Positions 1,336-41,883 of a DNA stretch of 64,000 nt are shown piece by piece. Numbering within the stretch: the stretch's first letter is position 1; every line of letters starts with the position of its first letter. Location: NCBI GenBank assembly GCA_043228905.1, contig JBHGNT010000006.1:18042001-18106000 (forward strand), written 5' to 3'. Position numbers and translations under genes: made by a program. Under the pieces are notes generated by a model. The model saw only the letters and a program-made list of their open reading frames with translations. It had not been told where the DNA came from and searched no databases. This stretch comes from Azolla caroliniana. Taxonomy: Eukaryota; Plantae; Polypodiophyta.

Positions 1336-2084
1336 TGTGAAAGTGTTTTTAGAATCTAAGCCATTGAACATTAGGAGAATATAAAGTATAGATAATTCAC
1401 CTTTTGAGGATAAGAACACGAACTAAGACCTTAGGGAAGAAGTCAAAAGTAAAAGTACGAGACCAAGAGAAAAGTAAAAAGAGAAAACGCAGACTATAAA
1501 AAACAGTAAAAATAGAATGGTCATAACTCCCTCGTTGTTTATCCAAATATCACGTTTAAATATGGATTAGAAAGCTTGTAAAAAGAGCTTTCTATAGCTT
1601 TTTAAATCGCTTAATTTGGATATCGGATGAGGGAGATATGACGATTAGAAGGTCGATGTGTCATAGCTAAAAATAGGGAGATAAAAAGCTTCTAAAAATA
1701 GCATGAACGTGGATAAGAAGAGGAAGGTTATAAAAGAAGAAGTGATATTAGTGAGGAGGGGGGCTAAGAGTGAAGGCCAAAGAGTGGATGAGGAGTGTTA
1801 GGAAGAAGTGTCTTTGTGGAAGAGGAAGTGTCTTAGAAGAGGAAGGTCTTTGGTTTTAGTTCAATGTGGAGTTTGTCTCCTTTGTATTCTCTTGATGTTG
1901 GAATATCAGAACATTCTTATTTCTTGCTCGCTTTCTCTATCTTTTTTCTTAGTTTCTTGAGTTATACTCTCTAATCATAATTACCTAGAGCTATATAATA
2001 TATTATGATTTTCAACTCCATCTAATCGGTTTGGTCAAGCCCTCATATAGTGTATAACTATCTATTATCTTATAAACCCTATCA
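1336..2084 (+). repeat. 5' LTR of Tat-like element
   Basis: Direct repeat of 7594-8342; TGTGA...TATCA termini. Confidence 0.96.
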
Positions 2085-2172
2085 TTTTGGTGCTCCAGGG
2101 AGGGCGGATCCTTTCCGTATAGGAGGGAGAACTTATCATTTAATTGTGTTACTATATTACATTAACTTAGCT

Positions 2173-5100
2173 ATGCAATTTGCATTTTCAGGTGAAAGAA
2201 CACAAGATGCGGGTGCCTTTTTGGCATCTTTTGAGCATCATGCTGTCTCTATTGGACGCATCACCGACAATGAGAAGTTACCTTTATTAGTAGCTACATT
2301 CTATGGTCGAGCTCGAGATTGGTATGACTCTCTTCCTCCAAACCAACAGGGAGCATATCAATTGTTGGTGCACCAGTTTCGTGCCAAATATATTCAACGA
2401 CGAAGTGCAACCGAAGTAAGGGAAGAGCTATTTCGACTAAAGATGGAATCACCAATTGGTTTCACTGAGTATGAAAGAAATTTCAAGGATTTGTGGACTA
2501 CATGGATTCGTCTTCGTGGCGGCACTGAAGACGAGTGGTTTAAAATGGAACGATTCAAGATGGGTCTTGATATGTATTTCCGTTTGGAAGCAAACTTGAA
2601 GGATCCCACATCGTTTCAAGCTCTTATCCAAGTTTGTCAAGCTTATGATCGACAAGTGAAGATGATGAGCTCCTTGGGGGATCCCCAAATGACGGCTTTG
2701 GGTGCAAATTTGATGCCTCGTGCCAACTTTCAAGCCTCATCTTCAATTGTGCATGGGGGACAAGTGTTTCCAAATGTGTATACCACCACAACAATAAACC
2801 CAACAAGTATATCCCAAGAAGTTGAACAAGTGAGGAGTGAACAAGATACCATGGCATTGGTAAATCGGCGCTTTGATGAAGTGATGACCCACTTGCGACA
2901 ATCCCAAGCAATTCACAACACTATTCCCGATGGTGGTGGCTCTAGAGGGCATCACGGTGTAATTTGTTATTCTTGTCAAGAGGAGGGACACATCTCAACA
3001 AGATGTCCTCATCGACAACAAAGAGGCATGGGAAGAGGCATTTATCAAGTGCAAAGGAATGGACAACGACCTAACAACAATGAAGTCGAAGGAAACGTAA
3101 CACTCCCTATGGCTCAGGTTCCTACAATTCCTCATAATGTGAATCTTCTTAATTTTATTGATGATAGTGATAATTCTTTTGAAGTAGCTCCTGTGAAAAG
3201 GACAAGGTCCTCGCAAAAGGAGAAAGAAGTTGAAGGAGAATCTAGTGCCTCAAGACAAAAGAAGAAGTCTAAGGAGAATGAGAAAGAGGAAAAATTGAGA
3301 AGGAGACACTCTAGAAGAAAGATCAAGATGGAGGACATTCCTATGGGTGAAGGTGTAGAAGCTTTCAATTTGAAGCACGAGTTGATTTCAAGTGGACCAA
3401 GGATAACATGGCCGCAACTTCTCCAATTATCTCCCACATTACGAAAGGAGTGGGGGCGACTTGCAAGTATTCGCCAAAGTCGGAAGACTGTGCATTATGT
3501 GGGAATCGTGCGAGTAGAAGATCGAAAGGACATACGACCCACCATCCCCGTCTCCATCAAAGGGTTTCACATCAAAGATGCGTTGGTTGATAGTGGTGCT
3601 AGAGTAAGCTTGATTTCTGAATTTGTGGTAAACAAAGTGGGAATTCCTATAAGTAGGTCATCTTCGGCAAGAGTGGCTGTAGCCGATGGTGGAGTGGTCC
3701 ATTGCATTGGCATAGTGGAGGATGTTGTCATCAAGTGTTTTGGGGTAAGCATTTCCATGGATTTTCATGTAATACCACTAAAAGGACCGTCATATTCTTT
3801 GGTACTAGGACGACCATGGATGCAAGAACTCAATGTTGTCCAAGATTGGAGCAAAGGTTTGATGACCATAACGCCATCAAAAGGAGTGAGCATACATTAT
3901 GATATGCGGCAACAAAGACTTATTGAGAAAGAAGAAGATGGAATAACTGAATATGATAGTGGGTCCGCATATGAAAGTGATGAAAGTGAAGATTCCTCGT
4001 CAGAATGGGAAATGACCACATCATATGCCGTTTTGAAGGAAGAAGATGATGAAGGAGGTTTAATTACTATGGAGCAAAAAGAGAAGATGATTTCTAAAGA
4101 TCTTAAAGGGCAAGAGAGGCAACAATTTATTAATTTGATTTCTGAATTTCCTAACCTTTTCATTAGTGATTATGCTCATATTAGGGGTGTAGATGTCATC
4201 CAACATCACATAAATCTAAAGGAGGGTACAACTCCCGTTGCGCAAAAGTTGCGAAGGCTAGGTCACGTGCAAAAGGAGGCCTTATTAAAGGAAGTCAAAG
4301 CTTTGTTGCGTGCACAATTCATTTACCCAGTGGAAGATTCTGAATGGGTTTCGCCCATTGTGGTGGTACCTAAAAAGAATGGAAAATGGAGGGTTTGTGT
4401 TGATTACAAACCTCTAAATGCGGCTACCAAGAGGGATCACTTTCCTCTCCCTTTCCAAGAGGAAATATTAGATGAAATTGCGGGTCATGAAATGTACTCT
4501 GTTTGTGATGGCTATTCAGGTTATTTTCAAATTCGTATTGCGGAAGAGGATCAAAAGAAGACGACATTCATCACTCCATGGGGATGCTTTGCATATCGAT
4601 GCATGCCCTTTGGACTCACAAATGCTGTTTTTACATTTAATCGTCTTGCTATTCATGTATTCCAACCATTCTTTGGAAAGTTTGTTAGAGTCTTTATGGA
4701 TGACTTTGCAATTTATAGTAGCAGGAAAGACCATTTGGAAAAGGTTCGCTTGGCATTCAAAAGATTGGAGGAATGCAAAATGCAACTCAACCCAGAGAAG
4801 TGTCACATAGGTGAAAAGGAGGTGGTGATGCTTGGTCATGTGGTGTCTCAAGAAGGAATCAAAGTTGATAGCTCAAAGATTGAAGCAATTCAAAAGATGA
4901 CAACACCCACGAGTATCAAAGATTTGGAGGTATTTGTTCAAAAAGTTCGTTACTTTGAACGATTCATTCATATGTTGGCCCAAATTCTCTATCCTTTTCG
5001 CATTATTCTTCGCACCAACAACTTCTTATGGACATCTACAACTGAAGAGCAATATGTAAGAATAAAAGAACTATTATGTAATGCTCCTATTCTAAAGCCA

Positions 5101-7332
5101 CCTGATAGAACATCTACCTTCTTTCTTTCTCTTAGTGTTGGATCTCATGCTATAGGAGCCATTCTTATGCAACAAGATTCTGAAAATAGGCTTATGCATC
5201 CTATATATTTTATTAGTAAAGCCATGTCTGATGTAGAGAAAGAATTCTTAGAAGTAGAAAAGTGGATGTTAGCTCTTATATATGCTTGTAAAAAGTTTAG
5301 AAGCTTTCTACTACCTCATCATTTTGTAATAATCACTAGCATGTCATTACTCCCATATGTACTCCAACATGTGAGCATTTCAGCACGAATTGCTAAATGG
5401 GCTCTACTATTGGCGGAGTTTGATTTTGAAGTCAAATTGGAATCAACTATGCGTGCCGAATTGGCGGATCTTCTCACCTTTAGAGAAACCTTTCATGAAG
5501 AAGACTTGGTAAAGCTACGAAAGGCACTTCCCGAGCCAGATATGGAGGATGCATTCACCTTATTCTTTGATGGGGCATTTCGCAAAGCCACAAACATAGC
5601 CGTGGGTGGGATTATTCTCAAGGATCCTCAAGGAGACAGAGTAAAAAGTGAAGGTATTACATTAAGTGGTGTGAATTCAAATAATGAAGCGGAGTATGCT
5701 ACCTTGTGTTATGGTCTTCGTCTATGTAAAGCTATGAAGATAAAAAGATTAATTCTTAAGGGTGATTCCTTATTGGTAATTAAACAAATTCAAGGCAATT
5801 GGAAATGTCAAAGTGATGGGCTTAGAAATTTTTATAAAGAAGCAATGAGTCTACTAAGGTCTTTTGAAAAGATACAGGTTAAGCATGTGGGGAGATTATA
5901 CAATAAAGAAGCGGATGCATTAGCTCAAGCCCAATTAGATAAGATCAAGGAAGGTTTCGTTGGTGTTTTGGAGACGTGCAAAGATGTAGACTCCCTAGAG
6001 GAAGTACATAATTTTCTTAATAAAGGAGAGTTTCCAAATAACCTCAATGCTTTGCAAAGAAAGCGTTTGGTGGCAAAGGCTTCACAATATCATTTGGTGG
6101 GTGAAGATTTGTACAACAAAGGGAAAGATGGAGTTTTACGAAGAGTTCCTAACAAAAGCGAGATTATAAAGATACTCTTTAAGTTGCATGAAGAAGTTTG
6201 TGGTGGGCATTTAGCCCATGATATAATGATAAGAAAGATTTTACTAATTGGTTTTACATGGCCTACTATCCATAGGGATGTGCATGATTGGTGTAGATCT
6301 TGTGATGCATGTCAAAAAGCGGGAATAAGACATCTACAAAGTGGACCTTTACAACCCATTGTGGTGTTTGCTCCATTCGAGAAATGGGGAATTGATGCAG
6401 TAGGACCTCTTCCGAAAACTCAACATGGTAAAGAGTTTATTTTGGTGGCCATTGACTACATGACAAAGTGGGTGGAAGCTATAGCAACTTCCTCGATTAA
6501 AGCCAAAGATGTAGCCCAATTTGTGTATAAGAATATTTGTACTAGATTTGGAGTTCCCATGGAGATTGTATCCGATCATGGACCCGGTTTTAGGAGTGAA
6601 ATGTTAGCTTGTCTATTAAGCAAGTTGAAGATTAAGCATCGATATTCAACGCCTTATTATCCTCAAGCAAATGGTGCAGTTGAGAAAGTGAATGGGCTTA
6701 TAGTGAAGAATTTGACAAAGTTAGTGCAAGACAAAGTAAGAACATGGGATAGGTATTTGGATGATACTCTTTGGGCTTATAGAGTTTCTTATAAATCCTC
6801 CACAGGTTTTACTCCTTTTTATTTGGTTTATGGAAAAGAAGCGTTACTTCCGATCGAACTTGAGATCAAAAGTAATAGACTAATGGAGGCATCGCATCGC
6901 TCAAAAGGAAATGATGTGATGAGTCGTTTAGCGAGCAACCATCTACTACAATATTCAAGAGAAGAAGCTGTGGAGCATTACTTAAATCAAGCAATGAAGA
7001 GAAAGGAGGCATATGACAAAAAACACAAGGGCAACCACATTGAAGAAGGATCATTGGTTCTTAGGTATGATAATAGATATGATTATATTCAAGGACAAAA
7101 GCTTGATAATAAGTGGGAAGGACCCTTTGTGGTTCACAAAAAGTATGACAACAGAAGTTACCAATTGAAAGATGTGGATGGAGCACTTCATTCTTATCGA
7201 GTGAACGGATGGCGCCTTAAAAAGTATGTAACTCGGGGACCTACTTATATTCCCCAAGTTACTAATGATATTGTTGATACGGATGGATGGGAGCAAGAAG
7301 TGGACTTGTTTCCCCATACATTATTTTCTTAA
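2173..7332 (+). CDS. Gag-Pol polyprotein (gag, CCHC, protease, RT, degenerate RNase H, archaeal-type RNase H, integrase)
   Basis: Single ORF; first ATG after the PBS is at 2173. Motifs CYSCQEEGHISTRC, LVDSGA, FMDD, FFDGAF...NNEAEY...GDSLLV...NKEADALA, HHCC zinc finger, DDE core, GPF. Confidence 0.95.
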   Translation: MQFAFSGERTQDAGAFLASFEHHAVSIGRITDNEKLPLLVATFYGRARDWYDSLPPNQQGAYQLLVHQFRAKYIQRRSATEVREELFRLKMESPIGFTEYERNFKDLWTTWIRLRGGTEDEWFKMERFKMGLDMYFRLEANLKDPTSFQALIQVCQAYDRQVKMMSSLGDPQMTALGANLMPRANFQASSSIVHGGQVFPNVYTTTTINPTSISQEVEQVRSEQDTMALVNRRFDEVMTHLRQSQAIHNTIPDGGGSRGHHGVICYSCQEEGHISTRCPHRQQRGMGRGIYQVQRNGQRPNNNEVEGNVTLPMAQVPTIPHNVNLLNFIDDSDNSFEVAPVKRTRSSQKEKEVEGESSASRQKKKSKENEKEEKLRRRHSRRKIKMEDIPMGEGVEAFNLKHELISSGPRITWPQLLQLSPTLRKEWGRLASIRQSRKTVHYVGIVRVEDRKDIRPTIPVSIKGFHIKDALVDSGARVSLISEFVVNKVGIPISRSSSARVAVADGGVVHCIGIVEDVVIKCFGVSISMDFHVIPLKGPSYSLVLGRPWMQELNVVQDWSKGLMTITPSKGVSIHYDMRQQRLIEKEEDGITEYDSGSAYESDESEDSSSEWEMTTSYAVLKEEDDEGGLITMEQKEKMISKDLKGQERQQFINLISEFPNLFISDYAHIRGVDVIQHHINLKEGTTPVAQKLRRLGHVQKEALLKEVKALLRAQFIYPVEDSEWVSPIVVVPKKNGKWRVCVDYKPLNAATKRDHFPLPFQEEILDEIAGHEMYSVCDGYSGYFQIRIAEEDQKKTTFITPWGCFAYRCMPFGLTNAVFTFNRLAIHVFQPFFGKFVRVFMDDFAIYSSRKDHLEKVRLAFKRLEECKMQLNPEKCHIGEKEVVMLGHVVSQEGIKVDSSKIEAIQKMTTPTSIKDLEVFVQKVRYFERFIHMLAQILYPFRIILRTNNFLWTSTTEEQYVRIKELLCNAPILKPPDRTSTFFLSLSVGSHAIGAILMQQDSENRLMHPIYFISKAMSDVEKEFLEVEKWMLALIYACKKFRSFLLPHHFVIITSMSLLPYVLQHVSISARIAKWALLLAEFDFEVKLESTMRAELADLLTFRETFHEEDLVKLRKALPEPDMEDAFTLFFDGAFRKATNIAVGGIILKDPQGDRVKSEGITLSGVNSNNEAEYATLCYGLRLCKAMKIKRLILKGDSLLVIKQIQGNWKCQSDGLRNFYKEAMSLLRSFEKIQVKHVGRLYNKEADALAQAQLDKIKEGFVGVLETCKDVDSLEEVHNFLNKGEFPNNLNALQRKRLVAKASQYHLVGEDLYNKGKDGVLRRVPNKSEIIKILFKLHEEVCGGHLAHDIMIRKILLIGFTWPTIHRDVHDWCRSCDACQKAGIRHLQSGPLQPIVVFAPFEKWGIDAVGPLPKTQHGKEFILVAIDYMTKWVEAIATSSIKAKDVAQFVYKNICTRFGVPMEIVSDHGPGFRSEMLACLLSKLKIKHRYSTPYYPQANGAVEKVNGLIVKNLTKLVQDKVRTWDRYLDDTLWAYRVSYKSSTGFTPFYLVYGKEALLPIELEIKSNRLMEASHRSKGNDVMSRLASNHLLQYSREEAVEHYLNQAMKRKEAYDKKHKGNHIEEGSLVLRYDNRYDYIQGQKLDNKWEGPFVVHKKYDNRSYQLKDVDGALHSYRVNGWRLKKYVTRGPTYIPQVTNDIVDTDGWEQEVDLFPHTLFS

Positions 7333-7593
7333 TAGTCCATATTGTAGACCCATCTTTCTCTCTATTAACAAAGAGGAAGATGGTAATAGTGATTATCTTT
7401 TTTATTTGTAGAGAATGTGAGGTTTTTCCTACCGATTAGCGGGGGTTTTACTCACATCTTTTTATTTTCTTTTTATTATATCTCTCTCATTGTCTATAGC
7501 CAAGAGATTGGCGAGAGAGCTTTTGTTTGTTAAGTACTGCCAATAAGTGCTTCGCCATAAATGGCTTAGCCTCTAACAAGGGGGAGGGCTAAA

Positions 7594-8342
7594 TGTGAAA
7601 GTGTTTTTAGAATCTAAGCCATTGAACATTAGGAGAATATAAAGTATAGATAATTCACCTTTTGAGGATAAGAACACGAACTAAGACCTTAGGGAAGAAG
7701 TCAAAAGTAAAAGTACGAGACCAAGAGAAAAGTAAAAAGAGAAAACGCAGACTATAAAAAACAGTAAAAATAGAATGGTCATAACTCCCTCGTTGTTTAT
7801 CCAAATATCACGTTTAAATATGGATTAGAAAGCTTGTAAAAAGAGCTTTCTATAGCTTTTTAAATCGCTTAATTTGGATATCGGATGAGGGAGATATGAC
7901 GATTAGAAGGTCGATGTGTCATAGCTAAAAATAGGGAGATAAAAAGCTTCTAAAAATAGCATGAACGTGGATAAGAAGAGGAAGGTTATAAAAGAAGAAG
8001 TGATATTAGTGAGGAGGGGGGCTAAGAGTGAAGGCCAAAGAGTGGATGAGGAGTGTTAGGAAGAAGTGTCTTTGTGGAAGAGGAAGTGTCTTAGAAGAGG
8101 AAGGTCTTTGGTTTTAGTTCAATGTGGAGTTTGTCTCCTTTGTATTCTCTTGATGTTGGAATATCAGAACATTCTTATTTCTTGCTCGCTTTCTCTATCT
8201 TTTTTCTTAGTTTCTTGAGTTATACTCTCTAATCATAATTACCTAGAGCTATATAATATATTATGATTTTCAACTCCATCTAATCGGTTTGGTCAAGCCC
8301 TCATATAGTGTATAACTATCTATTATCTTATAAACCCTATCA
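7594..8342 (+). repeat. 3' LTR of Tat-like element
   Basis: Direct repeat of 1336-2084, preceded by PPT and followed by TSD. Confidence 0.96.
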
Positions 8343-17936: not shown

Positions 17937-20519
17937 TTGGGATTGATACGGGGAGAACCAGAATGGAAACCGGGAAAACAGGGGGAGACAAGAAGAAAAA
18001 GGAAGCCGAGTCAATTGAAGAAGTCGGTACATCCGATGAAGTCAGAACAAGCGGCGAAGGCAGAATAGTCAAGAAACATAGAGCCGATTGGAATGAGAAG
18101 GCTAAGACCCGGACGTGGTCCGATGTCTCTGTTTTCTATTGTTATACGGATAAACGGGTTTTTCAAAGTTTCCGCATATATGGACCCGTACCATAGATTT
18201 CTGGAAAAAGAATATGCTCTTGTTGAGAATCAAGCTCAACTTGGTCTAGTGTGTGAACTCACCTTGAGAGTGAATAGACACTCCAACGGTCAAGAGTCAC
18301 CATTATGTCACCACTTTGTATTCTATCATTTAGTATGAGTCATAGAATCATATTCTATGACACATAACTTATGAGCTTTCACATTCCCCATGCTCCATGA
18401 GTCTTGTAGTTAATGAAGAGAGAGGGTGACTATATAAAGCACCCTCCTCCCACCTTGTAGAATGTTGTGTCTTACTCCTTGTCTCTTTTTTTTCTGGTGA
18501 AAACACACAATTATATTAATAAATGTGTGTGAAAAACACTGCTTACAATACGTGTGACAATGGAGTATGGTCACACACTAACCACACTACACTACATGGG
18601 TAATGGAACATGTTGAATTGCCAATAGGCAAGACAAACACTCCACCGAGGAAAGAATGTCCACTTGTTCCAATAAAGAAAATTGCCACATTAGTACTCCC
18701 TTCAACTTCCGTAGATATGCTTTCACTCCATGTCTACCATCGAATACAAAAGCATTGCGCATGTTCCAATTATGACACAATCCCCAATATCTCAGAAATA
18801 GGAAAACAATCTCCATCTCTGATTTTGGGTCAGCCTGTGTAAATTGTGCAAACACCCATTTTCTAGGTGTCAAATAACTCCGTGATAAAACTTGCCAAAT
18901 TTGAGAAATGTAACTCCAAATTTGACAAGCAATTGGACATTGTATAAATCGATGAGTATTATCTTCTATCTGAACTGTGCAAAAGAAGCAGGTACCCATT
19001 GCTAGTCCTCCAATCAAAACTCTCCAAATGAATACCTTTGCAACAAGTGGCAATTTAGAATGCCAACTACGTTGTAAGATCTGCCACCACCCATGATCAG
19101 ATTTGTGTATTTTCCATTCTTCTTCAGCCTTAGATGATAACCATCCATAAGACTCAACGGAACAATGATACAAAAGATTAGTAGTCACTTGTAACAATGG
19201 TGTTTGACCCCTTAAACTCCAATCAATCCACGGTTGTTCTCCTGTTTGTAGAGGTAAGGGACCTTGCATCAATGCAATATTCTATAGTTGTTGCCAAATA
19301 AACCCATAATTAGGCAGGATGCGTAATAATTGTTGTGCTTCAGTAAACTCCAAAATTCTTTGAGATGGAACCTCAACTATATCTCCCACCTCTTTGACCC
19401 CCAAACGAAACAAATGATTAAATTGAGAACGTAATCTCTCCTTTCCTGGCCAACATAATAACCGAGAAGACACAAGTAACTCTTTTTGCAAAGAGTTACA
19501 ATGCTCTCTACTAGATGATGGTTTCCATACACATAACAAGAGTGCTTCTTGCCATGAGGTAACTAAGTGTTGAACACATGAAGAACCCGAAATCCTAAGT
19601 GAAATACATCCATTCAGTAATTGCCACCATGAAGCCTTAATTGTTGTCCTCCCATGTGTTAAACCCTTGTTCTCAATGAAATATCGAACAATAGATATCC
19701 ATGGTTGTGAGTTTGAACACATGTCTTGTAATAATGAAAATCTACGAGCCATCATATGCATAGATAAGTTCAATATTCCAACCCCCCTCCAATCGCTTAG
19801 GGGTTGCTAGATGATTCCAAGCAATCCATGTGATTCCCATCTTATCCCTCTTCTTCCACAACAAATATCGAAGAGGTTGCAAAACAAAATTCAACGCCTT
19901 CTTTGTCCATGGCAATAATGGCAAGTAATATAATATCATGGGTTCCATAATACATTGTACAACCTTCAAGCGAACATGAAATGGCCAAGATTGTGACTTC
20001 CAATACATGAACTTATCCCTCAACTTACTAGACATCCATTCAATCAATTGACCATTTGTAACATTCATTCATAATGGATAGCCCAAGTGTCGAAAAATAG
20101 AGCCTTTCTTCGCCACGGATCCTTGCCATCCTAAACATTCCAAATCCCTTTCAGTGCATGATATGAGACTAGACTTCCTCCAATTAATATGTAATCTGGA
20201 AGCCAATGCAAACTGATTCCATACTGTCATGATATGGCAAGACTCGAACCCATGACCTTAGGTTATATGGGTCGAGCTCTTGACCATTAGACCATCTATT
20301 GTAATACGTAGGATATTATTTTCATTTACATTTTATTATAGGAAATTAGTGTATATTCCAGATTTCTCTGGAACATTCTAGAAGCTTCAGGATTACTCCT
20401 GAAAACACTATAAAAGAGGGCACTAGGCATTATGTTGAACCAAATTGGTTCAACGCCAATCTTAAGCCTTTTAGCCACCGTTGTATATTCTCTTCATATA
20501 ATAAATATCTTTCTTATCA

Positions 20520-20562
<43 letters not shown>

Positions 20563-20739
20563 GTCTCGCTCACTTCTTCCTTCTCTCGAAGAAGTTCCAC
20601 ACCTCTCATAGTACTAATCCTTCGTTTAGTACTAATTCCTTCTCTGTCTCAGTACTGTTCATGACAGTTTGAACCAATTTTCCTACCTTCTGTCTCTCTC
20701 ATTTCCTACTAATCTTTTATTCCTCTTTTCTTTCATCCC

Positions 20740-21891
20740 ATGGCCACTGTTAGCGCTGAAGAATATCAATCTGTTTTCTCGGAATTCCAATGCTTGAAGG
20801 AGAAGTTCCATGCTTTGGAACAAGAAAACCAACGGTTGCTGGGGGATCTTCAGCAAATCTCCTTAGAAAAGCAGCAAACGCAACAACAACATGGGGAACT
20901 TGCGTTACGCATGCAACAACTCGAAGCCACCATCGTAGCGATGCAACAACATGGGCCCGGAACACAAGGGATTCATAAAGAACCTAAGATTGGCCTTCCC
21001 ACGAAGTTCGATGGAACGCGATCGCAGTTTAGAGGGTTCCTTAACCAGGTACGATTAGTTATTCAAATGCATCCTTCCCGATATCCCACCGATGCATCAC
21101 GAGTGGGTTTAGTAGGCACTTTGTTAAGTGGCTCAGCGTTGTCATGGTTCGCTCCACTATTAGAAAAGGAATCTCCGTTACTCAACAATTTTGAAGAGTT
21201 TCTAGGTGAGTTTAAAGCATGTTTCGGAGATACTGACAGCATCAGGACCGCAATCAACAAAATCCGGCGATTACGCCAAGGTGACCGTCCAGCCTCCGCA
21301 TACGCTGCAGATTTTCGCCTACTCGCCGCCGATATCCCTTGGGATGATCAAGCGTTGATGGAGCAATTCCGTTATGGTTTACGCAACGACGTCAAGGATT
21401 TACTCTTGACCTTCCCCGAAGAGCCAAAGTCCTTAACAGAAGCAATCAGTCGCGCGGTGAGATGTGACAACCACCTCTTTGAGCGACATTCGGAACGACA
21501 GCTACAGATGCCGAGGGCAAGATCAGAGCCCACCTACGCCTCAGTGGTAGCAAGACCTTTTCCGAGGGAGTCATATAATGCGTCTCCAGCGAATACTCCG
21601 ACTCCGATGGAGATTGACACTACACGTCGTCGAGGGCCATTATCCGAAGAAGAAAAGCAGCGACGCCGTACAAATCGACTATGTCTTTACTGCGGTGGAC
21701 CAGGACATATCGCAATAAATTGCCCCCATAGGCCAAGAAGACAGGTAAACCAAATAGTCGCTAGTTCTAATTGTACTAAATCCGAACCTATTTCAGTAGG
21801 GATATCTGATAGTCCTAATAGTACTAATATCCCAGATCTAGCAAACAAATTTGATGTCCGTAGTCAGTTAGAAGAAGAGTTAAACGACTAA
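20740..21891 (+). CDS. Gag (PEG10/Ty3-like capsid, CCHC knuckle)
   Basis: PTKFDGTR, LSGSALSWF, LRQG, PTPMEID, CLYCGGPGHIAINC. Confidence 0.93.
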   Translation: MATVSAEEYQSVFSEFQCLKEKFHALEQENQRLLGDLQQISLEKQQTQQQHGELALRMQQLEATIVAMQQHGPGTQGIHKEPKIGLPTKFDGTRSQFRGFLNQVRLVIQMHPSRYPTDASRVGLVGTLLSGSALSWFAPLLEKESPLLNNFEEFLGEFKACFGDTDSIRTAINKIRRLRQGDRPASAYAADFRLLAADIPWDDQALMEQFRYGLRNDVKDLLLTFPEEPKSLTEAISRAVRCDNHLFERHSERQLQMPRARSEPTYASVVARPFPRESYNASPANTPTPMEIDTTRRRGPLSEEEKQRRRTNRLCLYCGGPGHIAINCPHRPRRQVNQIVASSNCTKSEPISVGISDSPNSTNIPDLANKFDVRSQLEEELND

Positions 21892-24800
21892 GTCCAGCCA
21901 AAATAGGAGCCGTTTGGTTGGACAGCCCTAGATCTGTGCAGCCCATTAGTGGTTCCATTCCCTCTAAGCAAGTTAGTGATGTGTTCGTAGCCCAAGTAAT
22001 AGTTAGTACTAAAAGTACCCCTCCAGTACATGTCCTAGCACTCCTAGATTCCGGAGCTAACTCTTGCTTTATGGATAAGAAATTTGCTGAAGCTCATATG
22101 ATATCCCTAAGAAAACTCCAGTGTCCAGCCTCTGTAGTAGTCATTGATGGACGTCCCATTGCTTCCGGAAATATCCTAGAAGAGTCAGAGCCCATTAATA
22201 TTGTCCTAGATAACTTAGTATGTGTAGTATCATTTAATATTATTAGTATCCCAGAACATCCTATAGTTTTAGGACTACCGTGGTTTGAGTTACATAACCC
22301 TGACATAGATTGGAGAACAAGAGAAATCCGGTGTCGACAAACCCAAGGGTCAACTCAGAAGATGGCAACCATTTCGCTACGTCAGTTGCGTAAAGAAGGG
22401 CACAAGGAGGAAATGTTCCTCTTTGCAATATCAGTAAACCCCTCCAACACCACTAAAGAAGAATCCACCGTTCAACTTCCCGAGAAGTATCGCCATTACA
22501 CCGATGTGTTCGATAAAGTACAAGCCAACACACTTCCTCATCATCGACCGTACGATTGCCCCATCGATTTACAACCGGGAAAAGAGCCGCCATGGGGACC
22601 GATCTACAATTTGTCACCAACCGAGCTGGAAGTCCTTCGGGCCTATATAGAGGAGAATTTGGAAAATGGTTTCATTCGGCATTCGAAATCTCCAGCCGGT
22701 GCACCCATTTTCTTCGTCAAGAAAAAAGATGGATCGCTTCGTCTCGTTGTAGATTACCGTGGCTTGAATAAGGTTACAATCAGGAATAGGTATGCTCTTC
22801 CCCTTATCTCAAGTCTTTTAGAACGGATCAATGGTGCCAGGTTCTTCACGAAGATCGACTTACGGGGAGCATATAACCTCGTACGGATCCGACCAGGAGA
22901 CGAATGGAAGACCGCGTTTCGCACCAGATATGGGCACTTCGAGTATACTGTCATGCCGTTCGGCCTCACTAATGCGCCGGCAGTCTTCCAGCACATGGCT
23001 AATGATATATTCCGAGATCTATTGGATGATTGTTTGATCATCTATTTGGATGATCTACTGGTTTATTCAAAGACCCAAGAAGAACATGATTCTCATGTAC
23101 TATTAGTACTAAAACGACTTCGAGAACATGGTCTGTATGCAAAGCTAGAAAAATGTAGTTTCGGGTGCAACCAAGTGGAATTTCTCGGCTACATCATTTC
23201 GTCAGAAGGCATCTCCATGGACCCAGCTAAGGTCAGAACGGTGGTAGAATGGCAGACTCCGCGTTCGGTACGGGATGTGCAATGCTTCTTAGGCTTTGCC
23301 AATTTTTACCGGAAGTTCATACAGGATTACTCAAAGATCGTTCTACCTCTCACACAACTTACCAGGAAGGGACAACCGTTCACCTGGTCTGAAGAAACGG
23401 ACATGGCTTTCGAGAGTCTTAAAAAAGCATTTACATCGGCTCCAATTTTAGCTCATGTCGATCCGGAGAAACCATTCATTATCGAAGCTGACGCATCGGA
23501 TTTTGCATTGGGGAGCATTCTGTCACAACAGGGGAATGATGAAAAGCTACATCCTGTGGCTTTTCACTCACGCAAGTTTGATGCCGCCGAAATCAACTAC
23601 GAAATCCATGATAAGGAGCTATTGGCAATAGTGGATTCTTTTATGCAATGGAGGCATTTTCTGGAGGGATCCTCTCATCCAGTCACCGTATTTAGTGACC
23701 ACAAGAATCTTGCCTACTTTCAGGATGCTCGTGTGTTGAATCGACGTCAAGCTCGGTGGGCCCACTTCCTCACGCGTTTCGACTTCAAAATTACATATCG
23801 TCCGGGGAGGCACCAAGGGAAGGCAGATGCATTATCACGGCGTTCGTATCTAGCACCCCGTCCCGGCGAGCCAGCTTTCGATAACCAAAAACAAGTCATC
23901 TTGGGACCGGCACGATTACAAGCAACACAAATCTTTGACATGCCTATGGATTCCCGCATTATCGATACCATACGTGAAGACTTGAAGACAGATGCGTTCG
24001 CCCAAGCTATACTAGCACAAATTGATCCCTCTCGAGCGTCGTGTTCACAGTCGCAACCACCAGGTACGGACTATCGGCAATTCAAATACCATGATGGATT
24101 ACTCTTCTTTAAAGAACTTTTATATGTTCCTAATGGTTCTTGCCGCCTTCGAGTAGTACAAAACTGTCATGACACATATACAACTGGGCATTTTGGTAGT
24201 ACTAAAACATTACATTTAGTACAACGATCATTCTGGTGGCCCTGTATGCGACAATTTGTCGAGGATTTTGTTCGGACTTGTGATACATGTTGCAGAACGA
24301 AAATGCCAAGGCATCATCCATATGGTTTATTAGAACCATTATCAATTCCAAGCAAGCCATGGCAATCCATTGCTCTAGACTTCATCACAGATCTTCCAGT
24401 CTCTAAGGGGTTCAATGCGATTTTAACGGTGGTCGATCGATATACGAAGATGGCTCATTTCTTGCCATGTACTAAGGAGATCTTCAGTGAAGACACTGCC
24501 GAAATTGTCATGCGTGAAGTATGTCGGCATCATGGACTCCCCGATAGTATCATCAGCGACCGTGGACCCCAGTTCGTGTCAAAATTCTGGAAGCACCTTT
24601 TTAACATGCTCAAGGTCACTTGTAACCTCTCTTCCGGCTACCACCCACAAACTGACGGCCAAGCTGAACGAACAAATCAAACGTTGGAGCAGTATCTGCG
24701 GTGCTTTCTCAGCTATCATCAGGACGACTGGGCAGATATTCTCCACTTCGCCGAATTTGCCTATAACAACTCTATCCACGCATCCACTAAAGTTACGCCA

Positions 24801-25475
24801 TTTTATGCTTATACGGGATGTCACCCCCGGTGGAGTGTACTTGAAACCCCAGAGGTGTCCACAAATCCGTGCGCGGAGGATCGTTTGGAGCGGTTACGCA
24901 AGATACAAGCGGATTTATCTACTCATCTCCAGCAAGCTCAACAAACACACAAGGTCTACGCGGATCGTCATCGACTTCCATCTAGTTTTAATATTGGAGA
25001 TCGGGTGTGGTTGCTACGACGACACATCAAGACTACTCGCCCATGTGAGAAGTTGGATTATCGGCGATTAGGTCCTTTCCGTATTATTGGAAAGATTAAT
25101 GATGTTGCTTTTCGTCTCGATCTACCTCCTCAACTTCGGATACATCCGGTGTTTCATAGTTCTCTCTTCGAACCCTACCACGAGAGCACCATCCCAGAAC
25201 GTCTTATCCAACCTCCACCCCCAATCGAGCTTGAAGATGGGCCGGAGTACGAGGTTGCCGCCATTCTTGATTCCAAGATTGTTCGCAACAAGCTCTACTA
25301 TCTAGTCGATTGGCTAGGCTATAGTCCCAGCGAACGTACTTGGGAACCGATCGAGAATGTAACCAATGCTCGTGCTCTTCTTGAAGACTTCCATCGTCAA
25401 TATCCACACAAACCGGGTCCTCAATCCAAGACGACTCGTGACACTCGTCGTTTTAAAGGGGGGATAGTGTCATGA
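21864..25475 (+). CDS. Pol (protease, RT, RNase H, integrase, chromodomain) in the -1 frame relative to gag
   Basis: LLDSGA, YLDD, EADASD, DDE integrase, EYEVAAILD...YLVDWLGY...TWEP. The frame opens at 21864 and overlaps the end of gag. Confidence 0.93.
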   Translation, partial: SVRRRVKRLSPAKIGAVWLDSPRSVQPISGSIPSKQVSDVFVAQVIVSTKSTPPVHVLALLDSGANSCFMDKKFAEAHMISLRKLQCPASVVVIDGRPIASGNILEESEPINIVLDNLVCVVSFNIISIPEHPIVLGLPWFELHNPDIDWRTREIRCRQTQGSTQKMATISLRQLRKEGHKEEMFLFAISVNPSNTTKEESTVQLPEKYRHYTDVFDKVQANTLPHHRPYDCPIDLQPGKEPPWGPIYNLSPTELEVLRAYIEENLENGFIRHSKSPAGAPIFFVKKKDGSLRLVVDYRGLNKVTIRNRYALPLISSLLERINGARFFTKIDLRGAYNLVRIRPGDEWKTAFRTRYGHFEYTVMPFGLTNAPAVFQHMANDIFRDLLDDCLIIYLDDLLVYSKTQEEHDSHVLLVLKRLREHGLYAKLEKCSFGCNQVEFLGYIISSEGISMDPAKVRTVVEWQTPRSVRDVQCFLGFANFYRKFIQDYSKIVLPLTQLTRKGQPFTWSEETDMAFESLKKAFTSAPILAHVDPEKPFIIEADASDFALGSILSQQGNDEKLHPVAFHSRKFDAAEINYEIHDKELLAIVDSFMQWRHFLEGSSHPVTVFSDHKNLAYFQDARVLNRRQARWAHFLTRFDFKITYRPGRHQGKADALSRRSYLAPRPGEPAFDNQKQVILGPARLQATQIFDMPMDSRIIDTIREDLKTDAFAQAILAQIDPSRASCSQSQPPGTDYRQFKYHDGLLFFKELLYVPNGSCRLRVVQNCHDTYTTGHFGSTKTLHLVQRSFWWPCMRQFVEDFVRTCDTCCRTKMPRHHPYGLLEPLSIPSKPWQSIALDFITDLPVSKGFNAILTVVDRYTKMAHFLPCTKEIFSEDTAEIVMREVCRHHGLPDSIISDRGPQFVSKFWKHLFNMLKVTCNLSSGYHPQTDGQAERTNQTLEQYLRCFLSYHQDDWADILHFAEFAYNNSIHASTKVTPFYAYTGCHPRWSVLETPEVSTNPCAEDRLERLRKIQADLSTHLQQAQQTHKVYADRHRLPSSFNIGDRVWLLRRHIKTTRPCEKLDYRRLGPFRIIGKINDVAFRLDLPPQLRIHPVFHSSLFEPYHESTIPERLIQPPPPIELEDGPEYEVAAILDSKIVRNKLYYLVDWLGYSPSERTWEPIENVTNARALLEDFHRQYPHKPGPQSKTTRDTRRFKGGIVS

Positions 25476-25762
25476 TATGGCAAGACTCGAACCCATGACC
25501 TTAGGTTATATGGGTCGAGCTCTTGACCATTAGACCATCTATTGTAATACGTAGGATATTATTTTCATTTACATTTTATTATAGGAAATTAGTGTATATT
25601 CCAGATTTCTCTGGAACATTCTAGAAGCTTTAGGATTACTCCTGAAAACACTATAAAAGAGGGCACTAGGCATTATGTTGAACCAAATTGGTTCAACGCC
25701 AGTCTTAAGCCTTTTAGCCACCGTTGTATATTCTCTTCATATAATAAATATCTTTCTTATCA

Positions 25763-25809
<47 letters not shown>

Positions 25810-26049
25810 GTCTCGCTCACTTCTTCCTTCTCTCGAAGAAGTTCCACACCTCTCATAGTACTAATCCTTCGTTTAGTACTAATTCCTTCTCTGTCTCAGT
25901 ACTGTTCATGACACATACAAGCATCCCCTTCTCAAGATTCTCCCGTGAGGCTTGTAAAAACATGAAAGAATCATCCGCCAAAGCTTGTACTACTATTTGC
26001 CCTCCGGACGGAAGGTGTAAACCCACAATGTCACCATTTATTGGAAGTC

Positions 26050-30674: not shown

Positions 30675-31576
30675 TTTTCCATGAACAAGAGTGAAAATCA
30701 GAACTCACCCGATTGAAGAGGTCGAAGATTTTGAAAGCAATCGAAGACCCACAATGAGTTTTGAGTATGTGGATGCCGACAACACAAGATTCCTTATTGC
30801 TATCGCTACTTCTCGTACAAACCGCTAAATTCAAATTGCTATATCTCGTTGTGAAGCTCTACTTGAGGGCTTTCCATTGCTTGTCTTTGTGCTCAATTCC
30901 GTTGTCCTAGAGTGAATCACACACTACGTGAAATATGTAAAATACTATATCCGATTTAAAGTACGTATAATAAATCAAATAAAATATTTAAAACCCCAAC
31001 CTTACCATTGTACTAACTTATCCTAAGTGTTCTAAACATAGATTTAATACGTATAAGACCTTTATTTACCTACCTTTATTAAAAGGTAAGTCATGCACTT
31101 TTTAGAATGCGTGAATACTTTATTTATAAGAAAAATGTACACCAATAAAAAATGACTTGTGCACATCTAGCGAGCATGAGCACTATATTTAGGAAATAAA
31201 AGCATAGTGTAAAAAGGCAACTCATGCACATTTAGTGTGCATGAACACTTTAGAAAAAGCATGTAGCTATGCTTAGCCTCTTCTAACCTTTTATGAGGAG
31301 AGAAAGATGTAGGGGGGGTTGTTGATTATTTTTACAAGGATTGATTAATAGAAAATATTCGTGGGATTCACGATTTTGCCATCTATTTCTCTCTTACATT
31401 CTAAATATCAATTAGTACACTATACTCGTGGGATTCACGAGTTTTTCATATATTTATTTCTTACAATATATTTCATATTCTTAATTGCCTTAGAATTTTC
31501 TTCTCTCCTAGTCCAAAACCTAAGTGGTTCCCACCAGATTCACGCAACGATCCGGAGCCGAAAGGCACGACACAAG

Positions 31577-31594: not shown

Positions 31595-32132
31595 CACGGG
31601 TGGCAAGGAGATGGAAAATCAACCAAAGGCGTGAATTAGACTCTACGTATTCACTCTGCTTAACCCCCTTTTGTTGGATCCATTGGATGCGTCTGACAGA
31701 GTTCAGACAGGGGATTCGATCCTTGTGAATCTTTGGATGCATAGCTTTTTGAACAGGGCCGTAGGTAGTCTGAAGGAGATCAAACAGGGGAGGATAAGCA
31801 GGCTCGCCCCTTCCCTCGGTATCCCTCCCGCTCCCCCCGAATGAAAGGGGAGAGCCGAAGACCCTGCGGATGGGGGAGGAAAATAAGTCCTCGAGAATAA
31901 GGACCAATCTGCTGTTGAAGTGGGCATCATTGGCGGAGAAAGCGCTATAGCTTTCTTGCTCCGCTCCTTCGTTCGTAAAGCCAACGGCGGTTCATGCGTG
32001 CGGAGTTATCTGAACCTGAACGATTTAGAACTAACATCCGAAGCAAGTTGAGTGGGTGAGCCGTATGATGGGCGACTGTCTCCTGCGGTTCTAGGGGGAC
32101 TAGGTACCCTAGGACACTGGGGGTCACTCCAT

Positions 32133-32320
32133 TTTATTATATACGCCTGGTGAAAATAATGTATTTCGATACGCCTAAAAGATGGATTCTATATAAACCA
32201 ATGGATCTTGAGAAATCGTTGCTACTAGCTATTAGTTTATCGTCGATTAGTTTCCTCTTCTTATACCTTTCTCTGCTTTTCCTAGTCACTCATGAAATGG
32301 CACGTTGTCTATGTATTCGA
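32133..32320 (+). pseudogene. nad2: Mitochondrial nad2 last exon (after intron nad2i1282), NUMT copy
   Basis: YYIRLVKIMYFDTPKRWILYKPMD.EKSLLLA...VTHEMA; preceded by group II intron DV/DVI ending in AT; CGA at 32318-32320 sits at the conserved stop position (C-to-U would create UGA). Confidence 0.9.
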
Positions 32321-32777
32321 GTGGTCTCATTGAATCTCTTCACTTCGGGGTGGGGGTCCGCCCCCTTTTTTCCTGCCTGCTGCTTTTCGCTTTAGTTGCG
32401 GATGTATGTCGTGGACACACAGATAGATTCATTCCCTAATATCCCCGGCTCGGACGCCCGCCCTTTCTGGGTCCTCCTATCCCACGAATATGTTTGCAGG
32501 GTTAATCGGGTCGGACAGAGGGGTGTATTCACTATACTGAAAGACGACCAAAGTTGCTTGCCCAAAAGCAAGCAGCCCTCCGAACCAAAATGGCGCCCTC
32601 CTTAGGAAAATTGGTTTGAGGGAGAAAATGGTTGGTGGAAAGGTCAATTCGTTTCATTTCCATGGAAGAGGAGGGTACGAGCGGAGTTCTCTAGCCTAGG
32701 CAAAGCATCAGATATACATTTCGCTATCCATTAACAACAGTGAAAGCGTAAATCTTTTTCAGACCTAACCTATTGGG

Positions 32778-32860
32778 TGGGAGAGGCAGGATTTGAACCT
32801 GCGTAGAAAACCTTCAACAGATTTACAGTCTGTCGCTTTTAACCACTCGGCCACTCTCCC
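32778..32860 (-). tRNA. trnY: Mitochondrial tRNA-Tyr(GUA), NUMT copy
   Basis: GGGAGAGTGGCCGAGTGGTTAAAAGCGACAGACTGTAAATCTGTTGAAGGTTTTCTACGCAGGTTCAAATCCTGCCTCTCCCA; GTA anticodon, long variable arm, 7-bp acceptor stem. Confidence 0.95.
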
Positions 32861-33629
32861 CGTTCAAAGTAAGCTTTGACTAACTTTCTGAGCGATTGGG
32901 AAGAGAGAAATCGATTAATCTACACGTCCTAACCCCTTCCAATACTAGCAGTCAGACTAACCAGTCGAAGATGGCCCTAGCCTTGCCTCGGTCATGCTTT
33001 ACTAGGCTTATACACATTTGCTTACGCTGTCCCCTCTTCAGCTCACCCCAGCCCCCATCTTGAGGGACGTTGCCCTCAAGACTTCACACCAAGTCTTTAT
33101 AGTCAAAGCGTGCTTGAGCAAGGTCAGGCAGAACCGTTGCCCGATGGGAACCTCCCCCATATTGCTATCGATGTCTTCATGTCGCATATCGACGAGACAA
33201 AGCGAAGGCCTTCATTGCATTGCATTGCATTGCTGCGACTTGTTGAAGAACCAACCTTTAACTCCCATGCATATGGAGGAGAGAGAAAAAGGGCAAAAAC
33301 CGAACAGACTTAGTGTCACGGATCATAAACTCAAGAGACAACCAAGAAGATAACCAAATGGACAAGAAAGAAGATAGTACTAAAGGAAAGACTCCATAAC
33401 TGGTGTTGTTCACCTTGAATTCCTTCAAGGTGAACTCCTCTATTTATACTACATGGCATGCACACTTGTTGCACGCATGTGAATCTACAATAGAGCATGT
33501 AGGTATGCATGCATGTGCCAAGTGTAAATACTACAAGGGAGCAACTATGCACATGATGCTAGCAAAATAATAAGGACCAATTACATACATAACTAGTACT
33601 AGATATCTTGGTTAACTCATAATAGTAGA

Positions 33630-36600
33630 TTATAACATGGTCGTGTCAAGAGTTCGAATCTTGACATTATCCCCCCTCTTACGCCGCCTTCCCAAATCGG
33701 CCGCTGGTTTGTGGGGATATCGGTGATGAAAATCTTGGACGACCTCTAGGGCATTTTGTAAATTTGCCGATGGTTCCCATGTGGCCTCAGACATGGGGTA
33801 ACCCCTCCATAGGACGAGGTATTGCAAGTGTCGACGGTGCCAACGCGAGTCAAGGATTTGGTCGACCTCGTATTCCTCCCCTGTCGTCAACTGCACAGGT
33901 GGTGGTGGTGGGGCTTGACGTCCTGGGAGTTGTGAAGCATAATGGGGTTCGAGGAGGGAGACATGAAAAACATCGTGAATCCGGAAGTGGGATGGAAGGG
34001 CGAGCCGGAAGGCGACGGGATTGATGCACTCGATGATACGGAATGGTCCCAACTTCTTGTAATCAAGTTTCGCACATGGACGAGTAGTAGAGATGTGTCG
34101 ACGTAACAACCAGACCATGTCTCCAACGACAAAGTGTGGAGTGGAAGATCGATGGCGATCAGCCTGCTTCTTGTATCGTTCATTAGCAAGACTAAGCTCC
34201 AAGGATAAATCATGATGTACTTCTTCCAAAATGCGGGCACGATCCTCCGCCGAAGGGTTCACGGAAGTGGTAGGAAGGGAAATGTTGAAGCGAGGATGTA
34301 AACCATAGTTGGCAAAGAAGGGAGTGACGCCAGTCGATGCATGGAGAGAATTATTGTAGGCGAATTCCGCGAGCGAAAGTAAGTTGACCCAATCATCTTG
34401 TTGGTAACTAACCGAGCACCGAAGATACTGCTCAAGGATTTGGTTGACACGCTCCGTTTGCCCGTCAGTTTGGGGGTGATAAGCGGAGGACAACTTGACA
34501 GAGATGCCTAAAGTTTGTAGCAAGCGCTGCCAGAAGTGAGAGACAAACTGGGGTCCGCGATCCGAGATGACATCATCGGGGAGTCCATGCAAGCGTACTA
34601 CATTGTTGAGTAGGAGATGCACCATTCCTTCTCCGGAAATGGTTTTGGAGCATGGAGTGAAGTGAGCCATCTTCGTAAACCGATCGACAACGACCAACAC
34701 CGAGTCATAACTATTGACCAAGGGTAGATCAGTTATCAGGTCCATAGAGATAGAGGCCCAAGGACGACGAGGACATGGAAGCGGCTGTAGTAAGCCGTAT
34801 GGCCGATGATGAATGGCTTTGGAGCGAGCACAAACCTCACAACTCTTTATGTATTCTTTGACCAGCTTCCATGGTTGTGGCCACCAATACCCCCGAGAGA
34901 TTAGCTCGAGGGTTTTCGCGACCCCGAAATGACCTGCAAGTGGGTCATCGTGGCATTCCCGCAACACCCGGGTGCGACATGGGCCCTCTGGGACGTATAA
35001 GAGATGATCTCGGAACAACAAACCCTCTTGTATGGTGAAGGTGTCAAGATCCTTCCTTTTGGTCGCCTTGGAGGGGTTTTGCAGACTATCTCGAATCTCG
35101 TTGGCGAACGCATCGGTCTTGGATGCATCAGTGATTTGTTGGAGTAAAGAATCATCCTGCAACATACAAGTGGCAAACATATGCAATTGGTCGGGTTTCA
35201 ACAAACGTCTAGATTGTTGAGCGTAAGCAGCATCCCCAGGGCGGAGTGCAAGGTCAGCTCGGCGAGAAAGGGCATCAGCCTTCCCATGTTGGCCACCAGG
35301 TCGAAATACAATCTCAAAATCGTAGTCAGCGAGAAATGTTGACCAACGGGCCTGCCTTCGATTCAAAGTACGAGTGGTGGAAAAATAAACTAAATTTTTA
35401 TGATCAGTCACTACCTGGACACGATGTTGTGCGCCGGCCAAGTAGGGTCGCCATTCTTCAAAGGCAGCAATGATAGCAGCAAGCTCCTTGTCGTAAATGG
35501 GATAATTGATTTCGGATGCCGTAAATTTTCGGGAATAGTAAGCCACTGGGTGCATTAGGTTGTTGTCGTCTGCTTGGGATAAGATGGCGCCAATGGCAAA
35601 GTCAGAGGCATCGGTTTCGACTTGGAAGGGTTTTGTGGGGTCGGCATGTAGCAGCACCGGGGCAGTGATGAATGCGTGTTTGAGTGAGTCGAACGCATTT
35701 TGTGCCTCCGAGGTCCATAAAAATGGAGTGCCCTTATGGGTGAGAGCGATAAGAGGTTGTGCTAGGGTGGAAAACCCCTTGATGAAGCGACGGTAAAAAT
35801 TTGCGAAGCCGAGGAAGGATTGCACATCTTTAAGTCGCCTTGGAGTCGCCCACGCCTGAATGACAGAGACCTTCTTCATATCCATGGTGATGCCAGTGGA
35901 CGAGATGATGTAGCCCAGAAATTCGATCGAGGTACGGTCGAACTCGCATTTCTCGCCTTTGGCATAAAGGCCATGCTCGCGAAGTTTGGCCAGAACTAAT
36001 TGGACTTGGCGAGTGTGCTCCTCCATGTTTGGCGAGAAAATGAGAATATCATCGAGGTAAATGACAACAAAAAGATCAAGATATTCCCGGAAAATATCGT
36101 TCATCATATGTTGAAAAACTGCGGGAGCGTTAGTAAGACCAAAAGGCATTACCTTGTATTCGAAATGCCCATACCGTGTTCGAAATGCGGTTTTCCATTC
36201 ATCCCCCGGCTTGATGCGTACTAGATTGTACGCGCCACGCAGATCAACTTTGGAGAAGACACGCGCAACTCGGAGGCGATCAAGGAGTTCGGGGATCAGA
36301 GGTAGCGGATAGCGGTTGCGCACAGTGAGTTTGTTGAGACCTCGGTAGTCGACGCATAAGCGTAGAGAGCCGTCCTTCTTCTTCACAAATAAAATGGGGG
36401 CCCCGGCTGGTGACTTAGAAGGTTGAATAAAGCCTTTCGCGAGGTTCTCATCAAGATACACACGAAGGGCCTTCAACTCTGGTGCAGACAACGCATATAG
36501 AGGACCAAAGGGTGGACACGCACCTTCTTGAAGATCAATCGGACAGTCGTAGAGCCGATGTTCAGGCAACCGATCAGCATTACATTTTTCAAATACGTCG

Positions 36601-37178: not shown

Positions 37179-37183
37179 GGCTC

Positions 37184-38200: not shown

Positions 38201-38623
38201 AGCTATGGCTTATGAGAGGGAGAGCTATGAGGATGGGAAGGTGAACAAACTGTCACGGATCATAAACTCAAGAGACAACCAAGAAGATAACCAAATGGAC
38301 AAGAAAGAAGATAGTACTAAAGGAAAGACTCCATAACTGGTGTTGTTCACCTTGAATTCCTTCAAGGTGAACTCCTCTATTTATACTACATGGCATGCAC
38401 ACTTGTTGCACGCATGTGAATCTACAATAGAGCATGTAGGTATGCATGCATGTGCCAAGTGTAAATACTACAAGGGAGCAACTATGCACATGATGCTAGC
38501 AAAATAATAAGGACCAATTACATACATAACTAGTACTAGATATCTTGGTTAACTCATAATAGTAGATTATAACATGGTCGTGTCAAGAGTTCGAATCTTG
38601 ACACTTAGAAGTCGTTGAAAGGA

Positions 38624-38779
38624 ATATTTGAGCATGATTCTTTCACGCTTCTTCTAGAGATCTTTCCTGTTAACGCAACTATTATTTTGCCCATTCATGG
38701 AGTTTTGTTTAGTACTTTCAAATAATATTATTATCTACTGCTAGTATGTAACGTGGGTTGGCTCGGTTTACCTAGTGTT
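38624..38779 (+). pseudogene. nad2: Mitochondrial nad2 exon 1, NUMT copy
   Basis: (ATA)FEHD...EIF.VNATII..I.GV.FST.K*Y.Y...V.NVGWLGL.SV; exactly 156 nt, matching the nad2i156 insertion site. Confidence 0.88.
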
Positions 38780-41770: not shown

Positions 41771-41883
41771 GTTTCGCAAGACACTTCAACATATACCTGA
41801 CGTTAGCAAGGGGGAACCAAGGTTTCTGCCTCGGTTCCCCCGGCAGGCAGGCATTCTCGGAACATCAACCAGAGGCTAACAAC

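Follow-up and report, generated by a model that had tools for sequence, protein, structure and literature searches.

Promoters of small RNA genes inside long terminal repeats (LTRs) are known from non-autonomous miniature terminal-repeat retrotransposons (TRIMs), where they make the element RNA. In Helenus, a tRNA-derived TRIMp3 described by Kojima in 2024 (PMC10886601) and represented in a lycophyte by Helenus-1_SMo, both LTRs hold tRNA-derived sequence, conservation is centered on boxes A and B, and mostly no functional tRNA is present. Cassandra and Ajax also have a small-RNA-gene promoter for RNA polymerase III (Pol III) inside the LTR, with Cassandra found in ferns (PMC7215508, PMC10886601), but it is a 5S type-1 promoter with A and C boxes that transcribes a non-autonomous element, and Cassandra terminators are conserved. 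Here we describe a tRNA-like module in the LTRs of an autonomous element, located in a 64,000-nt stretch (‘the window’) of the fern Azolla caroliniana (contig JBHGNT010000006.1 of GCA_043228905.1, positions 18,042,001 to 18,106,000). The element (element A, 20225–25913, ~5.7 kb) is an intact Tcn1-type chromovirus of the Ty3/gypsy group, and an A box, an AAGGTC motif and a B box all lie on the minus strand within the first 70 nt of each of its LTRs. An initial annotation of the window had pointed to Cassandra, but the tRNA-derived Helenus is a nearer precedent.

Helenus is non-autonomous, with a length of 311–1263 bp, and has tRNA-type primer-binding sites (PBSs) where they were determined, whereas element A is autonomous with open gag and pol and is self-priming. 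The Helenus promoter is proposed to drive its own transcript, whereas the module here runs antisense, outward from the 5′ LTR, in which a TATA box for RNA polymerase II (Pol II) is kept. Because it is antisense, the module cannot make genomic RNA, and it must therefore be kept for another reason. According to PMC10886601, autonomous partners must use Pol II, and ‘not a few’ LTRs in Repbase contain a portion of a tRNA, although only TRIMs were analyzed there.

Element A resembles the Tcn1 clade in its chromodomain-containing pol, 5-bp target site duplication (TSD), TG...CA LTRs, self-priming PBS and seed-free plant host (PMC2864245, PMC6317226). The passages of these articles that describe the clade speak of TATA and CAAT boxes without any Pol III module, and PMC2864245 contains neither ‘B box’ nor ‘polymerase III’. 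Among the papers listed by a full-text literature search, which did not cover subscription journals, none describes a module of this kind for the LTRs of autonomous gypsy or Tcn1 elements. Here, unlike in TRIMs, autonomous and recently active elements retain such a module, in an orientation unable to make genomic RNA.

In the 5′ LTR of element A, the A box (tRNA positions 8–19) is at 20284–20294 with T8 at 20294, and the B box (tRNA positions 53–61) is at 20241–20249 with G53 at 20249, so that the T8-to-G53 distance is 45 nt. Between them at 20254–20259 lies AAGGTC (tRNA positions 43–48, in the variable loop), which was not used in the scan described below. The 3′ LTR has the same module on the minus strand at 25484–25537 (G53 at 25492), pointing across the polypurine tract (PPT) into the end of pol. 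A related element, element B, belongs to the same LTR cluster and has a pol 84% identical to that of element A; its 3′ LTR carries the module on the plus strand at 61219–61271, with G53 at 61263 and a spacing of 44 nt. With an A box and a B box spaced as in tRNA genes, at 44–45 nt, the module has the layout of a type-2 Pol III promoter.

When the window was scored with a position matrix trained on 13 other LTR clusters, with the cluster of element A left out, these three sites ranked at the top with 41.0, 41.0 and 37.0 bits. In 60 block-shuffled windows, the best score had a median of 12.7 and a maximum of 18.8. The initial annotation had claimed the two boxes with tRNA-like spacing at the LTR start at 20225, the variable-loop motif, a second module in the 3′ LTR and its retention in the diverged LTR at 61219–61271, and it was right on all of these.

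Relatives were fetched by the C-terminus of pol, so that recovery did not select for the motif. The search confirmed 292 stretches, of which the best 80 were kept and 76 loci were returned; 9 loci with less than 150 nt after pol were dropped, and the remaining 67 loci plus three window LTRs formed 26 clusters. One representative per cluster was scored out of 13 for an A+B pair, using consensus patterns and a spacing window of 43–46 nt that was fixed after a first scan allowing 38–55 nt. Antisense pairs scoring at least 11 occur in 16 of the 26 clusters, far over the 2.04 expected from dinucleotide shuffles, while the sense strand has 2. At a score of at least 12, the antisense occurrence is 9 of 26 with 0.26 expected, and that on the sense strand is 0. 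The proposed recurrence across LTR families is thereby borne out. The spacing is 44–45 nt in most modules although 38–55 nt was allowed.

The full module is found in 14 of 18 clusters from the window and the closest record series, which is partly by construction, most of them being in the training alignment. As for the remaining four, locus L046 and family C of the window have the B-box side only, L061 is decayed, and L038 has none. Viral contigs yielded no match by protein or by motif.

Conservation was measured as mean pairwise identity with one sequence per cluster (n = 14), over a pol divergence reaching down to 53% identity. Identity is 0.85 in the B box and 0.82 in AAGGTC, although the latter was unscanned. 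In the A box it is 0.60 at scanned and 0.53 at unscanned positions, and it is 0.59 at positions 21–23 and 0.54 at positions 34–36. The neighbors are much lower: 0.38 on the upstream side, 0.33 on the downstream side, and 0.26 and 0.30 in what remains between the boxes. The initial annotation had asked whether the boxes are more conserved than flanking U3, and they are.

These numbers bear on whether the module is merely a neutral relic of an old SINE (short interspersed element) or tRNA insertion carried along in U3. Decay at C61 and G10, the lost A-box spacing of family C and a family D copy that lost its B-box half would all suit a relic, but with 0.82–0.85 in the B box and AAGGTC against 0.26–0.38 in neighbors at such pol divergence, with fixed spacing and with biased CpG decay, this explanation is largely refuted and we consider it most improbable. 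Judged from these sequence patterns, the module is kept by selection.

The CpG bias was seen at C56-G57 in 32 modules that were anchored without those two positions. CG was found in 18, CA (allowed) in 12 and TG (disallowed) in 2 (p = 0.013), while CpGs in the flanks decay evenly (13 TG and 11 CA). This asymmetry is supportive but not decisive, as the copies are related.

We propose, with a probability of about 0.5, that the module is an assembly site for TFIIIC and Pol III that would act as a chromatin barrier shielding the Pol II promoter of the LTR. In plants, TFIIIC occupies the A and B boxes and places TFIIIB on AT-rich DNA upstream of them (PMC13578239). Element A has an AT-rich tract (20302–20339, minus strand) upstream of its A box, a predicted TFIIIB platform by analogy with that report. 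The corresponding tract from T8−24 to T8−8 has an AT content of 0.69–0.94 and is richer than sequence further into the LTR in 20/20 sequences. The module faces away from the sense TATA box, which is at 20409–20415 (plus strand) in element A, ~115 nt from T8, presumably as the Pol II promoter of the LTR; in the 10 of 20 sequences where a sense TATA box was found, it is 114–303 nt from T8.

TFIIIC would bind the A and B boxes, and TFIIIB would load on the AT-rich tract that separates the A box from the sense TATA box. The complex would then occupy the outer end of the 5′ LTR, with the host flank on one side and the promoter on the other, and because of the antisense orientation Pol III would not run into the start site of the element itself. 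Genomic RNA would still come from Pol II and be self-primed, and any Pol III RNA would be a by-product. Fission yeast has tRNA gene (tDNA) barriers that work independently of orientation and require TFIIIC and Pol III (PMC2040200). Those tDNA and B-box barriers are host loci with a demonstrated function, whereas the module is borne by a mobile element and its function is predicted. The assembly-site reading is favored because conservation tracks DNA promoter positions rather than RNA stems or RNA length.

RNA stems were examined in 19 sequences, where none of the four cloverleaf stems exceeded partner shuffles, and a conserved cloverleaf is thus ruled out. Neither Rfam (E up to 5) nor ARAGORN called the window modules, and ARAGORN called no module in 31 loci. 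The only tRNA in the window is a mitochondrial-type tRNA-Tyr. Accordingly, the description of the module as tRNA-shaped in the initial annotation applies to its spacing, but not to its fold.

One structure does form in the cluster of element A (window 20230–20295 and loci L003–L005, L014 and L028), where the arm between the boxes repeats the B-box arm imperfectly in inverted orientation and the two arms form a rod hairpin with AAGGT in the loop. Selection could act on such a rod after the PPT (21–36 pairing with 48–64), as RNA or single-stranded DNA, for plus-strand priming. The fold is strong in the window copies (z = −4.6 and −5.5), and 63.8% of cells pair compared with 30–47% with partners slid. 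However, of 27 modules only 7 have a z of −3 or below, among which the L051 fold differs, covariation is not above shuffles, and the A box and the fixed spacing are left unexplained. This is hardly to be expected as the reason why the module is kept.

RNA length was judged by the first T4 downstream of G53, which is 9–1036 nt away in 20 sequences and 908 nt away in element A, so that a conserved terminator was rejected. Because this distance varies so widely, a defined RNA product is argued against. This weighs on the explanation in which the module works as an active Pol III promoter and selection acts on its product, antisense RNA from the 3′ LTR that is used in silencing or copy-number control. 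In element A such RNA would run across the PPT and the end of pol for ~0.9 kb, in keeping with the lack of T4 for 908 nt. The module is always antisense in LTRs, and its boxes, spacing and AT-rich tract are kept together, suggesting a full pre-initiation complex instead of a bare B-box site. On the other hand, the length is not conserved, with T4 at 10 nt or less from the B box in 5/20 sequences and 500–1036 nt away in others, and transcripts from 5′ LTRs and solo LTRs would be random flank. We regard antisense RNA as an unlikely target of selection, though with the best chance among the alternatives.

Another explanation, distinctly unlikely in our estimate, is that sense U3 RNA binds the D and T arms of a host tRNA in packaging or strand transfer. 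Ty3 sets a direct precedent: the 3′ half of its bipartite PBS lies in U3, where it is complementary to both the T-psi-C arm and the D arm of tRNAi-Met and pairs with them (PMC5371799). Such annealing would account for the fixed antisense orientation and the U3 position, and the bias for CA over TG at C56-G57 fits G:U tolerance. In addition, inter-box letters weakly resemble a tRNA-Asn gene at locus L020 (35% vs 26% shuffled, p = 0.033), but no such resemblance was found to tRNA-Thr (p = 0.46). Ty3 pairs with one primer tRNA, whereas the elements here are without a tRNA PBS and keep only box positions; element A, being self-priming, has no tRNA primer to tether. Positions 49–52 and 59–63 vary between families, so that no long match to a single tRNA is kept, and the longest pairable runs are 6–14 nt with the three tRNAs compared. 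Changes that G:U pairing would tolerate at T47, T54 and T55 are found in 0/19 sequences, where T54 and T55 were scanned positions but T47 was not.

The two L020 genes, at 553–626 (Asn-GTT) and 832–905 (Thr-AGT), are intact tRNA genes, ~115 nt from a truncated Tcn1 pol fragment.

It is also conceivable, though improbable, that TFIIIC on cDNA ends or on the integrated LTR steers nuclear position or integration, for example by tethering to Pol III clusters. The distance from G53 to the LTR end varies but is always within 15–71 nt. Moreover, Tcn1 family C retains the B box alone, at 33645–33666 (plus strand) in its 3′ LTR with a counterpart at 38582–38603 in its 5′ LTR, and in fission yeast TFIIIC-only B-box sites coalesce at the nuclear periphery. 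However, most families retain the A box with its spacing, which is beyond what tethering needs, and no insertion was noted just upstream of a module or a tRNA gene in the window and L020, which were not surveyed systematically. The initial annotation had listed 33600–33666 among the similar modules, which holds only for the B box, as there is no A box at tRNA spacing (9.1 bits).

Several observations weigh against the assembly-site reading. That same family C looks active in spite of lacking a properly spaced A box. C61 is replaced in 6/19 sequences and G10 is poorly kept. Within the family of element A, contigs of four DNA runs aligned to its 3′ LTR show no difference in the B box (in the 40 of 105 shown), and A-box changes at positions 9, 11 and 12 are consensus-compatible, but that at position 10 is incompatible, and G10>A segregates within the family. 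Because of the C61 and G10 losses and this segregation, weak boxes may be common. The CAA motif that accompanies the AT-rich region in plant type-2 promoters was seen in just 8/20 sequences, and the asymmetry at C56-G57 is likewise expected under tRNA annealing. The sequences share ancestry, so that the counts are not independent, and the barrier precedents are from yeast, not plants.

Furthermore, 8 related LTR clusters from the other record series have no model match at their LTRs, in a search that covered 32/32 loci with default filters and 29/32 with filters off. A few of these clusters score 11 or 12 by pattern, but without AAGGTC or a model match. Tcn1 elements therefore do not need the module.

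Outside the cluster of element A and element B, the next-ranked sites of the window are two modules of LTR family D, with 22.5 and 20.3 bits (shuffle maximum 18.8). One is on the minus strand at 48468–48520, after the PPT of a chromodomain-less gypsy, and has C56>T in its B box; the other is on the plus strand at 47479–47531, in a second, inverted copy. A third copy, whose LTR is at 30903, has the A-box half only (30998–31025, minus strand), with the B-box half deleted. The owner of LTR D is a divergent gypsy with DUF4100 (41770–48353), whose reverse transcriptase (RT) is 27–28% identical to those of the Tcn1 and Tat elements of the window; an Atlas search yielded no lineage name for it. Because LTR D follows the PPT of a gypsy with an RT 27% identical to that of element A, the module extends to another gypsy lineage, distant from the first. 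The link between LTR D and this gypsy is adjacency in two places, and the copy at 48354 joins a Tcn1 gag on its other side.

At that junction (48851–48870), a truncated LTR D abuts the beginning of the Tcn1 gag, which is possibly a trace of LTR exchange, or of deletion after nesting.

The further LTR sites listed in the initial annotation thus fared unevenly. Those at 47479 and 48468 stand, but as copies of one family with a non-chromovirus owner. Another at 57077–57135 is module-like, but without support as part of an LTR. It scores E = 2.9e-6 with model R1 and 16.5 bits with the matrix, inside the shuffle tail, and the decayed module-like sequence around it (57066–57136, plus strand) lies in a low-copy, low-depth stretch that contigs and other copies of the surrounding repeat skip, leaving a sense LTR module there unsupported. 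Candidates at the Tat-type LTRs (1853 and 8111) and at 53901 are not counted as modules, scoring 18.1–18.3 bits at the edge of the shuffle maximum without a B-box core.

A tRNA origin of the module is supported because the L051 module, the only match to RF00005 when Rfam was run on 28 loci (27.8 bits, cut-off 29), retains an acceptor stem with 7/7 pairs, although its anticodon arm is broken. The LTR end comes 6–62 nt past the B box, so that a SINE-type tail is absent from the LTR copies. The initial annotation had proposed repeated capture of a tRNA or SINE head; the origin finds support in L051, and the capture may or may not have been repeated. Extra motifs and spacing are common to all families, which is most simply explained by a single capture or a small number of them, followed by spread by LTR exchange within a host lineage. 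Likewise in the proposed mechanism, the module would have entered as a tRNA or SINE head and then spread between gypsy lineages by exchange of LTRs.

In quick trees, made without an independent root or named Tcn1 references, module bearers fall into two or three deep branches that are separated by clades lacking the module. Grouping the 14 bearers, with C and L046 included, against the 8 non-bearers is marginally rejected (p-AU 0.039). Alternatively, the module may have been present ancestrally and lost in other hosts.

Taken further, and more tentatively, the module could be a portable, tRNA-derived Pol III barrier cassette, maintained by selection in deep branches of Tcn1 and transferred to an unrelated gypsy lineage, that makes a dual-polymerase LTR. 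In such an LTR the Pol III machinery would face outward and protect the inward Pol II promoter. If TFIIIC is recruited, LTR copies would seed Pol III-factor sites genome-wide, and the elements would carry a built-in defense against silencing. The module also offers a direct test of tDNA-type barriers in plants. If the module is what we propose, its best-preserved copies could inflate tRNA gene counts in repeat-rich seed-free plants. More than 7500 tRNA genes are given for Azolla filiculoides in a review, with the reservation that predictions may include pseudogenes (PMC13578239).

The remaining features of element A, all on the plus strand, are those of an intact element. Its 5′ LTR (20225–20666, 442 nt, TG...CA) follows the TSD CATAC at 20220–20224, and its 3′ LTR (25468–25913, 446 nt), after the PPT, precedes CATAC at 25914–25918. 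The two LTRs differ by 3 mismatches in 443 aligned bases and one 4-nt gap in a CT repeat. The gag open reading frame is at 20713–21891 (stop to stop) and that of pol at 21864–25475, open throughout, with protease, RT, RNase H, integrase and a C-terminal chromodomain (PF00385, E = 3e-14). No tRNA-type PBS was seen after the 5′ LTR. Instead, an 11-nt PBS at 20669–20679 is complementary to an 11-mer in R at 20443–20453, the predicted RNA 5′ end and self-primer, in a layout reported for most Tcn1 elements (PMC6317226). The Tcn1 assignment is suggested by domains, PBS and host.

Between the module and the TATA box, element A has TCTAGA-based palindromic repeats (20350–20385), which are also found at L007, L016 and L018. 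They recur across many Tcn1 LTR families, with a depth peak in contigs aligned to the LTR, and are possibly Pol II enhancer sites.

Elsewhere among the relatives, L060 has a module-like sequence at 3178–3246 (E = 2e-5) with two inverted B boxes, lying in an AT-rich flank of the locus, whose own Tcn1 LTR is without a module. The Tat-type gypsy of the window (1336–8338) is intact, with an additional RNase H and identical LTRs, and model R1 detected no module in it. The window also contains a mitochondrial insertion (31600–33310 and 38604–41600) with the above-mentioned tRNA-Tyr, group II intron ends and, between group II intron sequences, an nad2 exon, which has an in-frame TAA that would need U-to-C editing. 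Such editing and the nad2 introns point to a fern or lycophyte host. This insertion is interrupted by the family C element (33314–38603), which is flanked by the TSD CTTAG.
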